Assembly (NCBI GenBank): GCA_963822445.1
Contig: CAWGHO010000003.1
Span: forward strand, 1,408,001 to 1,472,000
DNA length: 64,000 nucleotides
Origin: an uncultured Acidobacteriota bacterium
GTDB taxonomy: Bacteria; Acidobacteriota; Thermoanaerobaculia; Gp7-AA8
Direction: 5' to 3'
Each line of letters begins with the position of its first letter. Position 1 is the stretch's first letter. The notes under the pieces were generated by a model. It saw nothing but the letters and a program-made list of their open reading frames with translations. It was not told the origin of the DNA and did not search any database. A program made the translations under genes and the position numbers. Of this stretch, positions 53,610-57,684 are shown piece by piece.

Positions 53610-54761
53610 TCACTTTTTGCGCGTCAGCAACACCGCAAAAACAGCGGCGAGCGCGAGCGCTGCACCCGTGAAAAACGCGGCGTGCCGCGATACATGTTCG
53701 TAAAGCAGACCGAACAACGCCGTTCCGAGGAGCACACACAGACCGTTGGCGAGGTAATAAATGCCGAAGCTTTTTCCGCGCACATCCGCAGGGACGAGAT
53801 CGGCAATCCAGGCGCGCTCCGCACCTTCGGCGAGCGTGAACGGAATCGCGTAAAGAACGAACAGCACGAAGAACGAGGTCAGCGATTGCGCAAAGGGGAA
53901 CGCGGCGTAAATGACGGCGTAAGACGTCCACCCCGCGACCAGGAGCCACCGCCGGTCGACGCGATCAGACAACGCACCGGCACGCGTGGAGAAGAGTGAC
54001 TTGATCACGTGATGCGACGCCCACAGCAGAGGCAGCATCGCCGTGGTCACTCCTGCTGCATGAGCCTGAAGCAGCAAGAACGCGTCGCTCGAGTTCGAGA
54101 GGGAGAAAAGCGCGACGGCGGTGATCGCGCCGCGAAAAGAAGCGGGGAGCGCCGGTCCACCGATGACTTTCGAGGGTTCTTTCGGTTTCGAAGTGCGCGG
54201 CACTTCGCGGAGGAAGAACGCCAGCATGGCCGCGCCGATCGCGCCGGGAATGACCGCGAAGAGAATGGTCTGCTTGAGCGAGAAGCCGAGGACCTGCAAA
54301 AGCAACAACGCCAGCAGGGGACCGATGATCGCGCCGGTGTGATCGAGCGCGCGATGAAAGCCGAACGCGCGTCCGCGCTGATCGTGCGGGGTGACGTCGG
54401 AGATCAACGCGTCCCGCGGCGCCGATCGAATGCCTTTGCCGGTGCGATCGAGCAGCCGAGCGAAGAGGACGAGCGGCCACACGGTCGCCGCCGCAATGAG
54501 CGCGCGCGACGCCGCCGCGAGACCGTAGCCGCTGACAATGAAAGGTTTCCGCCGCGGCATGCGATCGGACCAGGCCCCCGCGAAGTATTTGAGGATGGAG
54601 GAGAGGCCGTCAGCCGCACCCTCGATCAACCCGAGCACCGCCGGGCTCGCCCCGAGCGTCGCCGTGAGGAAGATCGGCAGGAGGGGATAGATCATCTCGC
54701 TCGCCGAGTCGTTCAGCAGCGCGGCGAGGCCGAGGAGGATGACCTGCGGCTTGAGCTTCAC
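53610..54761 (-). CDS. MFS transporter
   Basis: 'NDSASEMIYPLLP', 'GKGIRSAPRDALI', 'GRAFGFHRALD'. Confidence 0.9.
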   Translation of the reverse strand: MKLKPQVILLGLAALLNDSASEMIYPLLPIFLTATLGASPAVLGLIEGAADGLSSILKYFAGAWSDRMPRRKPFIVSGYGLAAASRALIAAATVWPLVLFARLLDRTGKGIRSAPRDALISDVTPHDQRGRAFGFHRALDHTGAIIGPLLALLLLQVLGFSLKQTILFAVIPGAIGAAMLAFFLREVPRTSKPKEPSKVIGGPALPASFRGAITAVALFSLSNSSDAFLLLQAHAAGVTTAMLPLLWASHHVIKSLFSTRAGALSDRVDRRWLLVAGWTSYAVIYAAFPFAQSLTSFFVLFVLYAIPFTLAEGAERAWIADLVPADVRGKSFGIYYLANGLCVLLGTALFGLLYEHVSRHAAFFTGAALALAAVFAVLLTRKK

Positions 54762-54787
54762 GCGGGGAATGGTAAGGGGGAACGACG

Positions 54788-54911
54788 AGGGGGCCTCCGG
54801 CGGGCCGGCCACGGGCCGGCAGGCGCTGGTTGTGCCTTCTGCCGAACTCGCGGTAGCTAGCGCGAATCGCGTTCACGCCAACATCAGCGCTGCCGGCCGT
54901 GGCCGCCCGCC
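54788..54911. repeat. REP-like inverted repeat whose right arm is interrupted by the IS110 (arm resumes at 56452-56462)
   Basis: Left arm AGGGGGCCTCCGGCGGGCCGGCCACGGGCCGGCAGGCGCTG; right arm CAGCGCTGCCGGCCGTGGCCGCCCGCC|GGAGGCCCCCT. Confidence 0.8.
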
Positions 54912-54989
54912 TATAGCTTGTCCGGCCGTCTCTCCGCTTCTCCCTCAGCCCTCAGAGAAGTACCCGTTGGGTGGCAATCGGGAGAATCG

Positions 54990-55165
54990 GATTCAGGCGG
55001 CGCGATACTGAGAAGAAGGGTTCGTCCCGCTACGAATTCCGCCCGTGTTCGGATCGACGAATCCCTCCGGACTTTCGAGCGGGACGAAGTGCTTTGGCCC
55101 GAAACGCATTCTCAGATGCTGTCGGAGCACGACTCGACTATAGGCCTTGCGCGCGGCCAAAGCCA
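54990..55165 (+). ncRNA. Putative IS110 bridge RNA (5' end uncertain)
   Basis: Two stem-enclosed internal loops (55021-55088, 55091-55163) carrying segments that match target and donor on both sides of the core. Confidence 0.75.
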
Positions 55166-55182
55166 ACCGAAGGGAGGGTGTG

Positions 55183-56427
55183 ATGAGCGAGTTCGAGTTT
55201 GGGGCGTTGGTGGGGCTGGATTGGGGTGACACATCGCACGAGGTGGCTCTTTGGGACGAGCAGCAGCAGACGTGCACGAACGAGCGCATCGAGCACACGC
55301 CTGCGGCTCTGCGCGCATGGATCGAAGCGCTGCAGGCGCGCTTCGGCGGGGCACCGATCGCCGTGGCCATCGAGCAGTCCCGCGGCGCGGTCTTCGACGC
55401 GCTCAGCGGCTATCCGTTCGTCACGTTGTATCCGATCAACCCACGCAGTGCAGCCCGGTATCGTGAGGCGTTTCATCCGAGCCTATCGAAAGACGATCCG
55501 ACCGACGCGGCGTCCTTGCTCGACCTGCTTCGTAAGCACCGCAACGAACTGCGCCCGTTCATCGCCGACGACGCTTCTACGCGTCTGCTGCGGCTTCTGA
55601 CCGAGGATCGGCGCGAGCTCGTCGATCAGAGGACGCAACACGTCCAACGCATGACCGATCGGCTCAAGACGTACTACCCGCAGGCGCTCCGGTGGGCCGG
55701 CGCGTTGATTACGGCGCAGGCCTGTGACTTCCTCGAACGCTGGCCGACGCTCGAGGCCATCCAAAGGGCTCGGCCGTCCGCGATACGGAGGTTCTATGCG
55801 GGTCATCATCACGCGGCCGCGTGGATCGACCAGAAGCTCGCCGAGATCCGTTCAGAGGTCGCGTTCCACGACGATCAGGTCACCACTGACGCTGCCGTGC
55901 TACTGATCGGAAGCGAGGTTGCGCAGATCCGGGCCCTCAACACGAGCATCGCCACGTACGACCAGAAGATCTCCGCGGCGTTCGCCGCCCACCAGGACGC
56001 GTCGATCTTCGCGAGCTTCCCTGGCGCCGGCCAACAGCTCGCGCCGCGGCTCGCCGCCGCCTTCGGGACCGATCGCAAGCGCTTCGGCAGCGCCGTCAAC
56101 GTCGCCACCCGAAGCGGCATCGCCCCGGTTCTCCGCCGGAGCGGCAAAACGGCGGTCGTGCACATGCGCTGGGCCTGTCCGAAGTTCCTGCGTCAGACGT
56201 TCCATGAGTACGCCCGCGTGTCGATCGGTCAGTCCGTATGGGCTCGAGCCTTCTACAAGCAGCAACGCCTGCGCGGACACAGCCACCACGAGGCTATCCG
56301 CACGCTCGCTTACCGCTGGATCCGCGTCCTTTACGCCTGCTGGAACAATCGCACCGTCTACGACGAAGCTCTCTATCTGCGGCAGCTAGCCACGCGAGGC
56401 TCAACCCTCGCCACAGCTGCTCCCTGA
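55183..56427 (+). CDS. IS110 family DEDD recombinase/transposase
   Basis: 'GLDWG', 'AIEQS', 'KDDPTDA' DEDD tetrad; conserved Ser in 'GIAPVLRRSG'. Confidence 0.95.
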   Translation: MSEFEFGALVGLDWGDTSHEVALWDEQQQTCTNERIEHTPAALRAWIEALQARFGGAPIAVAIEQSRGAVFDALSGYPFVTLYPINPRSAARYREAFHPSLSKDDPTDAASLLDLLRKHRNELRPFIADDASTRLLRLLTEDRRELVDQRTQHVQRMTDRLKTYYPQALRWAGALITAQACDFLERWPTLEAIQRARPSAIRRFYAGHHHAAAWIDQKLAEIRSEVAFHDDQVTTDAAVLLIGSEVAQIRALNTSIATYDQKISAAFAAHQDASIFASFPGAGQQLAPRLAAAFGTDRKRFGSAVNVATRSGIAPVLRRSGKTAVVHMRWACPKFLRQTFHEYARVSIGQSVWARAFYKQQRLRGHSHHEAIRTLAYRWIRVLYACWNNRTVYDEALYLRQLATRGSTLATAAP

Positions 56428-56474
56428 CTTGACAGGAAGGCTCAGATGTCCGGAGGCCCCCTGGTCGGTTCCCT

Positions 56475-56714
56475 TCAGCAACCGCCCACGCGAGACCAAA
56501 CCGACACGACACCATCCACATCGAGCCGCAGCGTGTCGCCGTCGACCCGATACGGCACGACGATCTCCGCTTCCGCCGGGAGGATGAACAGGCGGTCGCC
56601 ATCCTCCTCACACTGGAAGCGGCTGCGGCCGAGGATGAGAGTGTCGTCGCCGAACACGATCGTCTCGTCACCGTTGCGCCAGGTACCCGTCAAGTCTCTG
56701 CGCATGAAGTCCAT
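56475..56714 (-). CDS. Hypothetical small beta-rich protein
   Basis: 'LTGTW...YRVDGDTLRL' lipocalin-like pattern; start uncertain. Confidence 0.5.
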   Translation of the reverse strand: MDFMRRDLTGTWRNGDETIVFGDDTLILGRSRFQCEEDGDRLFILPAEAEIVVPYRVDGDTLRLDVDGVVSVWSRVGGC

Positions 56715-56798
56715 CTCGTCTGGATAGTGACGATCGAGCAGTTTTCGTTTCAAACGGTCCAAGTAGAATGCGCCCGCATTTCGAAAGGAGTCTCGCAA

Positions 56799-57683
<885 letters not shown>

Positions 57684-57684
<1 letters not shown>

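Follow-up and report, generated by a model that had tools for sequence, protein, structure and literature searches.

A 64,000-nucleotide stretch of contig CAWGHO010000003.1 (assembly GCA_963822445.1, an uncultured Acidobacteriota bacterium; hereafter the window) carries a 1540-bp insertion sequence (IS) at positions 54912-56451 of the + strand, with the right-hand CC counted in. By its protein domains, its ends, and the layout of its left end, this insertion is a member of the IS110 family, IS110 group, and we consider it very likely to be an intact, recently active element that recombines through a bridge RNA encoded in its own left end, as a preliminary description of the window had proposed. 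Comparison across relatives shows that the two-loop structure of this RNA is conserved and that its target loop follows the insertion site. The element would join a mechanism described in 2024, and its novelty is modest, consisting of a natural CC core and a relaxed pairing of the left guides at that core; both traits appear to be common to a sizeable, so far undescribed clade of soil bacteria.

Element boundaries, genomic copies, and recombinase

Removing positions 54912-56451 restores an uninterrupted target, GGCCGCCCG-CC-GGAGGCCCC, as can be read directly from the letters. The target duplication is limited to 2 nt, with CC at both junctions and nothing else shared in any of the nine full copies found in the genome, and since the junctions share CC alone, the crossover dinucleotide is unambiguous. 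Terminal inverted repeats are absent, the two ends being TATAGC... and ...CAGATGT. The non-coding left end comprises 271 nt (54912-55182) and lies upstream of the gene, which is the layout of the IS110 group and not that of the IS1111 group, and 24 nt (56428-56451) follow the stop codon. The ends and the gene are laid out as follows, in window positions.

54901-54911, + strand: left junction, with GGCCGCCCG at 54901-09, CC at 54910-11, and TATAGC from 54912 (read in sequence)
54903-54911, + strand: left target CCGCCCG at 54903-09, then one CC core at 54910-11; each of the nine copies is preceded by G[C/G]CCCG-CC
54912-54917, + strand: right donor arm TATAGC, the -10-like hexamer of a promoter that only the circle junction would complete
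55183-56427, + strand: recombinase gene (414 amino acids; Pfam and NCBIfam), with a ribosome-binding site (RBS), GGAGG, upstream
56429-56434, + strand: TTGACA, -35 hexamer of the predicted circle-junction promoter, 17 nt before the junction TATAGC
56441-56451, + strand: left donor arm CTCAGATGT followed by the second CC core; relatives conserve this arm
56441-56460, + strand: right junction, with CTCAGATGT at 56441-49, CC at 56450-51, and GGAGGCCCC at 56452-60 (read in sequence)
56452-56456, + strand: right target GGAGG (sequence and genomic copies)

The source genome (6.0 Mb in 3 contigs, 64% GC) holds nine full copies of the element at 96-100% identity, plus two rearranged ones. All nine have identical ends (CC followed by TATAGC at the left, CTCAGATGT-CC at the right), lie in the target G[C/G]CCCG-CC-GGAGGC, and retain an intact recombinase open reading frame (ORF), and two of them, at different loci, are 100% identical over 1540 bp. 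The preliminary description had named different ends, or targets unrelated to the loop sequences, as grounds for rejecting it, and neither was found among these copies. The nine copies differ at 83 alignment columns, none of which falls within IS positions 104-241, a 138-nt segment that covers both loops and in which an even spread would place ~7; we read this as purifying selection on the RNA.

The two rearranged copies differ in kind. One, a tenth copy at C3:469301-470841 (L010, L012, L014), contains a ~160-bp internal inversion (IS positions ~414-578) between short inverted ATCGAA/TTCGAT words, which breaks the recombinase gene; its bridge RNA region is unbroken, with a score under the covariance model described below (R1) that resembles those of the full copies. 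At C1:940357-941431 (L011, L013), two partial pieces from the right end of the IS, one spanning positions 846-1540 and the other 1160-1540, are fused head to head with their right ends outward, each adjoining GGAGGCCTCCCGGTGTG, and the flanks are inverted repeats of each other. Either recombination between two copies in inverted orientation or an artefact of assembly could account for this arrangement.

The recombinase matches the Pfam families DEDD_Tnp_IS110 (PF01548, 1.3e-28, residues 10-166) and Transposase_20 (PF02371, 4.7e-11, residues 274-359), and barely passes the NCBIfam model NF033542, "IS110 family RNA-guided transposase" (141.2 bits for a cutoff of 140). Residues D13, E64, D105, D108, and S320 are invariant in 16 homologues (50-89% identity), and S320 aligns (phmmer) with a serine within an SG motif of ISCro4 (PDB 9t56). 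By analogy, we infer that these five are the catalytic DEDD/Ser residues, an assignment taken from the IS621 papers (PMC11208160, PMC11208158).

Joining the two ends in a circle would place TTGACA (56429-34) upstream of TATAGC (54912-17) with a 17-nt spacer, and in relatives TTGAC[N] lies 17-18 nt upstream across the junction, conserved even at ~50% protein identity. In IS110 circles, excision is described as rebuilding the promoter of the RNA (PMC11208160), and by analogy excision would here complete a sigma-70 promoter for the bridge RNA. A promoter scan of the integrated copy returned no sigma-70-like site on the + strand; the same scan gave one weak site on the minus strand (55166-55137, 9-of-12 consensus, 0.3 expected in shuffles) and one terminator-like site outside the IS.

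Guide segments of the probable bridge RNA and their covariation with targets

The left end is predicted to encode a putative 5′ stem-loop and, behind it, two hairpins, each of which holds a pair of guide segments.

54925-55000, + strand: putative 5′ stem-loop of the bridge RNA (weakly supported predicted fold)
55021-55088, + strand: target-binding loop, with outer stem 55021-31/55078-88 plus 55033-36/55074-77 and inner hairpin 55047-55062
55039-55045, + strand: left target guide (LTG) CCGCCCG, in the same sense as the left target (sequence)
55064-55070, + strand: right target guide (RTG) CCUCCGG (DNA CCTCCGG), the reverse complement of CC+GGAGG (sequence)
55071-55072, + strand: target-loop handshake AC, reverse-complementary to the GT that ends the left donor (sequence)
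55091-55163, + strand: donor-binding loop, with outer stems 55091-99/55155-63 and inner hairpin 55121-24/55130-33
55111-55118, + strand: left donor guide (LDG) CUCAGAUG (DNA word CTCAGATG), in the same sense as right-end bases 56441-48
55138-55144, + strand: right donor guide (RDG) CUAUAGG (DNA CTATAGG), the reverse complement of CC+TATAG
55145-55146, + strand: donor-loop handshake CC, whose first base, C55145, is able to pair with the last G of the left target

Hairpin 1 is closed by TTCGTCCCGCT (55021-31) pairing with AGCGGGACGAA (55078-88), and hairpin 2 by GCTTTGGCC (55091-99) pairing with GGCCAAAGC (55155-63). The site read by the loops comprises 7+2+5 = 14 nt, CCGCCCG-CC-GGAGG. Coordinates, junctions, both hairpins, and the four guide words had been correctly given in the preliminary description, which had overlooked the handshake nucleotides. 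These fit as well: following the "handshake guide" described by Hiraizumi et al. (PMC11208158), AC after the RTG matches the donor GT and C after the RDG matches the target G, and the donor-loop base is G in relatives whose left target ends in C. RTG and AC together (CCUCCGGAC) form a 9-nt complement of the right junction. In the integrated element, these bases would already be paired with the right junction ahead of exchange, a configuration described for IS621 as disfavouring excision.

Each guide word is present once in the 271-nt left end. Among 20,000 dinucleotide-preserving shuffles of this left end, CCGCCCG, CCTCCGG, CTCAGATG, and CTATAGG were found in 7.0%, 6.7%, 0.33%, and 0.47%, respectively, at least two of the four in 103, and all four in none (product of the single frequencies, ~7e-8), while the 9-mer CCTCCGGAC, i.e., the RTG with its handshake, occurred in 0.35%. 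The minimum free energy fold of 54912-55182 reproduces hairpin 1 as described, along with the outer stem of hairpin 2.

For comparison, a profile of 16 homologues was run on contigs of one genome per species and gave 322 relatives. The analysis retained 80 loci, which come almost entirely from Acidobacteriota metagenome-assembled genomes (MAGs); Gemmatimonadota, Nitrospirota, Chloroflexota, and others contribute a few. Element boundaries were derived from multi-copy families, independently of any RNA model, and the donor arms (CTCAGATGT / TATAG) are conserved down to ~50% protein identity. A strict regular expression for the RNA pattern gave 25 matches; with the looser version used for counts, the pattern is present in 62 of 81 sources. 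A covariance model (R1) recovered the RNA in 18 of the 19 loci missed by the regular expression, and its matches in the element's own genome are limited to the nine copies and one rearranged copy.

The fold is conserved in this set. Across 25 distinct RNAs, 92.1% of the cells in five helices are paired, compared with 31-45% when partners are slid, and 11 of the 25 helix pairs show compensatory changes, a result equalled by none of 500 shuffles (shuffles ignore relatedness, and the slid control is the fairer one). The outer helix of the target loop is 98.8% paired, with compensatory changes at three pairs, and the helices of the donor loop are 90-98% paired, also with compensatory changes. The intact IS110 element with a bispecific RNA layout that had been read from the window alone thus gains support from Pfam, NF033542, the guides, and this fold covariation.

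The target loop changes along with the insertion site. In 18 of the 22 families with a known right target, the reverse complement of the family's own core plus right target is matched over 7-8 nt; the match is shorter (4-6 nt) in the other four (L017, L020, L029, L044), and non-cognate target classes match over 0-5 nt in the same test. The right targets fall into about ten unrelated classes (GGAGG, ATGCC, GGCTA, TTCGC, CCTT, TCGAC, AAAGG, GAAGG, TTGGG, TGGAG, TCGGG). For instance, L068 and L071 carry the RTGs CCUUUAG and CCUUCAG for right targets AAAGG and GAAGG, respectively. Left guides follow their targets in the same way, as in L020, whose LTG is CGGCCG-CC for target CGGCCG-CC, with GGCCCG in its neighbours. 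Such matching changes in relatives with other targets bear out the guide specificity claimed earlier for the window element. Because the donor arms hardly vary within the clade, the donor loop covaries only at the core base (GG/AG/AC/AA) and in a few further changes (L052, L075).

Pairing at the core is divided between the two sides. The right guides pair with both core bases, and the left guides of this element stop before the core, as had been noticed from the window alone: the LTG CCGCCCG is followed by UG and the LDG CUCAGAUG by CUG, where the DNA reads CC and T-CC, which leaves the left guides without Watson-Crick core pairing. A wobble between U55046 and the bottom-strand G at core position 1 is possible; G55047 closes the inner hairpin at its base together with U55062, and L018 has A-U in place of that pair. 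Among families, the LTG is Watson-Crick paired at core position 1 in 17 of 20 and wobble paired in the remaining three, which include this element. Core position 2 is paired by the LTG in 7 of 20 families and by the LDG in 0 of 23, the latter because the G at that place forms the first base pair of the inner stem. Close relatives differ, with the LTG followed by CC in L016 and L020 and by UG in L017 and L021. The "different pairing rules" once suggested for the left guides therefore hold only in part, and on this comparison the unpaired left guides are a graded, derived departure from IS621, in which core pairing by all four guides is described as "strongly preferred" (PMC11208160).

Several observations weigh against a bridge-RNA mechanism of this kind. 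Six of the nine insertions lie in sites that mismatch the second base of the LTG; because these six occupied sites have the CGGCCCG form, the mismatch is tolerated. The core is not paired by all four guides (UG in the left guides, a wobble followed by a mismatch). The fold energy of the whole left end is just modestly better than that of shuffles (z = -2.12; 7 of 200 shuffles fold equally well), and the 5′ stem-loop shows compensatory changes in 1 of 32 predicted pairs (7 sequences), with an unfavourable covariation term (+2.25). A scan of 54500-56800 against Rfam 15 (E ≤ 1) returned only a chance-level match to BTH_s19 (14.9 bits for a gathering score of 153); because no curated family matches, the likeness to the IS621 RNA is architectural only, with no shared model. 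The recombinase is very distant from the solved bridge recombinases, its sole phmmer match being ISCro4 (E = 3.5e-4, Tnp domain only). Finally, no circle junction or empty site was found in four soil-metagenome contig sets, whose contigs come from relatives and are uninformative on expression or excision; among sequencing runs, none of RNA was listed as containing the stretch, and the best-matching DNA run carried 0.21 of the words sampled from it.

Three other explanations were considered, all of which we judge improbable. The first, with the best standing of the three but still quite unlikely, is that the family is well preserved and now inactive, crippled either by the CC core itself or by the U-G/G-G state in which the left guides meet the core. 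Guide core mismatches are reported to reduce IS621 activity (PMC11208160), and the failure to find circle or empty-site reads in the contig sets, which derive from relatives, would fit such a state. However, nine ORFs are intact and two copies at different loci are identical throughout, and because all nine copies carry the UG variant, which also occurs in L017 and L021, UG was no bar to multiplication. We regard the bridge-RNA recombinase as probably active.

Slightly less probable again is that the left-end words act as DNA, i.e., as subterminal copies for transposase binding or synapsis, as has been suggested for the subterminal repeats of other IS families, with incidental hairpins. Identity or complementarity of the words to the ends cannot by itself separate a DNA role from an RNA role. 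However, stems that match no end or target keep their pairing, including the compensatory pairs counted above, which argues for selection on a folded single strand; moreover, the layout is that of the proven RNA mechanism of the same protein family (PMC11208160, PMC11208158), and the junction promoter aims into the hairpins. Least probable is a left-end RNA that serves mainly as a regulatory leader of the recombinase mRNA (attenuator or antisense target) while the protein chooses the target: the structured region does stop ~20 nt before the RBS, the minus-strand promoter-like site runs antisense through the donor loop, and ISPpu9, likewise of the IS110 family, was at one time suggested to be under small-RNA regulation (cited in PMC11208160), but that minus-strand site is one 9-of-12 match where shuffles would give 0.3, and a leader does not predict that loop 1 tracks the insertion site in about ten target classes or that GG/AG tracks the core.

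Under the bridge-RNA reading that we prefer, the element would be excised as a circle, in which the joined ends form a sigma-70 promoter by analogy with IS621. This promoter would transcribe the left end into a bridge RNA of ~240 nt, composed of a 5′ stem-loop, a target-binding loop, and a donor-binding loop, and would probably also drive the recombinase mRNA behind it. The target loop would then read CCGCCCG-CC-GGAGG and the donor loop the circle junction CTCAGATGT-CC-TATAG, with core position 2 read by the right guides (GG) only and the left guides extending no further than position 1, through a U-G wobble at best. Strand exchange at CC would be carried out by the DEDD/serine recombinase as a tetramer, and the handshake bases (AC, C) would pair with the partner DNA only after top-strand exchange, so that insertion is driven and excision disfavoured. 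With a site at each tip of the target repeat, the genome would offer ~40 free landing sites.

Core dinucleotide among relatives

The CC core, which the preliminary description had set apart from the CT of IS621, is present in all nine genomic copies; it is not peculiar to this element, and is common to a large clade beside CT, GT, and TT relatives. The RDG ends in GG where the independently located right end has CC and in AG where it has CT, and further relatives combine guide AC with a GT core and guide AA with a TT core. A branch with 98/94 support in a protein tree of 41 rows sets 18 of the 19 CC rows, plus one CT row (L056), apart from the others. L074 is placed among NT rows; its CC core is deduced from the guide only. 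The core label requires three changes on this tree, at least two of which are forced by well-supported branches. On this distribution, the CC core is a trait of a large Acidobacteriota-centred sub-clade, with some switching.

A candidate protein signature for CC was rejected. Residue 15, two after D13 in the motif GLDW[G/A]D, is G (once D) with CC and A with CT (24 rows). On the 80 loci this signature failed: the CC-core loci L040, L049, L086, and L087 (and L074) have WAD, and the CT-core loci L050 and L054 have WGS.

A tentative idea, to which we give somewhat less than even chances, is that the second core base in this clade is set by the right guides alone (GG/CC, AG/CT, AC/GT, AA/TT) and not by the protein, the left guides being dispensable at the core; CC and NT would have been exchanged at least twice without a consistent recombinase signature, and the core would be freely programmable. 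If true, the clade would contain natural bridge recombinases whose core can be set at will, even to C at position 9, a choice disfavoured by the IS621 structure. For IS621 and its relatives, the T at the second core position is termed "almost invariant" (PMC11208158), and CT boundaries were prioritised in the pipeline of Durrant et al. (PMC11208160). Cores given in the literature consulted are CT, the engineered GT, AT, and TT, and AG for ISPpu9 (PMC12288879). A literature search on CC-core bridge recombinases returned nothing relevant; such orthologues may already appear in the supplementary tables of Durrant et al. 2024.

Bridge editors in use are described as limited to CT or GT cores. An orthologue with a natural CC crossover, 7-nt reading on the right side, and tolerance of unpaired left guides would widen the addressable sequence space, and would also test what fixes the core.

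The CT-core relatives include a family in the Terriglobia MAG CBDAPB01 (L056-L066) with eleven copies at ~94-97% identity over ~2.1-2.3 kb, compared with ~1.6 kb in the other families; additional sequence may thus lie upstream of the RNA here.

Known systems and the target repeat

The closest parallel is IS621 of E. coli (Durrant et al. 2024, PMC11208160; Hiraizumi et al. 2024, PMC11208158). As described in these papers, IS621 shares with the present element a left-end RNA upstream of the recombinase gene, the order of 5′ stem-loop, target loop, and donor loop, left guides in top-strand sense and complementary right guides, a 7+2+5 = 14-nt site, handshake bases after each right guide, a promoter rebuilt across the circle junction, a target in a repetitive palindromic element, and a DEDD plus serine recombinase. 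It differs in its core (CT, as opposed to CC here), in an RTG of 4 bases where pairing here extends over 7 nt, in an RNA of 177 nt compared with the ~240 nt predicted here, and in that all four of its guides include the core, whereas the left guides here lack Watson-Crick core pairing. IS622/ISCro4 of Citrobacter rodentium (bioRxiv 10.1101/2025.05.14.653916; PDB 9t56), the sole solved structure found by the recombinase search, belongs to the same family and follows the same guide and handshake logic, but has a CT core and resembles the recombinase over the Tnp domain only.

Other systems are similar in part. ISPpu9 (PMC12288879) and ISPpu10 (bioRxiv 10.64898/2026.03.19.712850) of Pseudomonas putida are described as multi-copy elements that insert at one dinucleotide within repetitive extragenic palindromic sequences (REPs) and form circles, and the AG of ISPpu9 is a non-CT crossover in the wider family (PMC12288879). 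Unlike the RNA here, which lies upstream, the small RNA gene ssr9 of ISPpu9 is downstream of the transposase gene; the host phylum also differs, and the repeat is a different one and much shorter than the ~140 bp found here. In the IS1111/IS110-type seekRNA systems (Siddiquee et al. 2024, PMC11187229), a non-coding RNA of the element likewise guides target choice. The finding carries bridge-RNA-guided recombination into a soil-bacterial (Acidobacteriota/Gemmatimonadota) branch of IS110 that is distant from these systems and has a fully legible RNA and a natural CC crossover.

The "REP-like target" of the preliminary description corresponds to a ~140-bp imperfect palindrome that is intergenic and separated into two parts by the insertion, with the remainder of the window copy at 56452-~56470.

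54783-54911, no strand: larger left part of the ~140-bp palindromic target repeat (blastn with an unoccupied repeat copy: C3:1462783-1462911)
54794-54807, - strand: second, free 14-nt site, CGGCCCG-CC-GGAGG, at the other tip of the window repeat (sequence; C3 1462805(-), one of the 41 unoccupied sites counted below)

A 186-nt stretch of the repeat folds as a long hairpin (-148.2 kcal/mol). Genome-wide, 47 BLAST high-scoring segment pairs of ≥ 120 nt, two per locus, correspond to roughly two dozen loci, each repeat tip carrying one site, on opposite strands. The unoccupied word GCCCGCCGGAGG occurs 41 times in the genome, for 8.3 expected from composition, and 40 of these 41 sites lie in copies or fragments of the repeat. 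The perfect 14-mer (CCGCCCG...) is free at 8 sites and occupied at 3, and the one-mismatch form (CGGCCCG...) is free at 32 and occupied at 6. With two sites per copy, the repeat represents a safe landing pad for a nine-copy IS.

The arms of the repeat are of two types, …GGCAGAAGGCACAACCAGCGC… and …GCGTTCACGCCAACATCAGCGC…. Another palindromic target is found with a CT-core relative in MAG CAWANC01 (L038-L047, L053, L085), which adjoins a short hairpin (GGCACGAnTGAAnTCGTGCC-CT-TTCGC); L085 consists of two tandem copies ~1.7 kb apart.

In the window, the insertion is intergenic. Its neighbours are the gene of a major facilitator superfamily (MFS) transporter on the minus strand, which ends at about 54740-54812, and a small ORF that matches no Pfam family. 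A 3-hydroxyacyl-CoA dehydrogenase gene elsewhere in the window (56727-57684) looks frameshifted: 3HCDH_N covers residues 29-205 of a 308-aa ORF whose tail is Arg-rich and out-of-frame-looking, and the conserved-looking C-terminal part resumes in another frame from 57379, either as a pseudogene or through an assembly indel.

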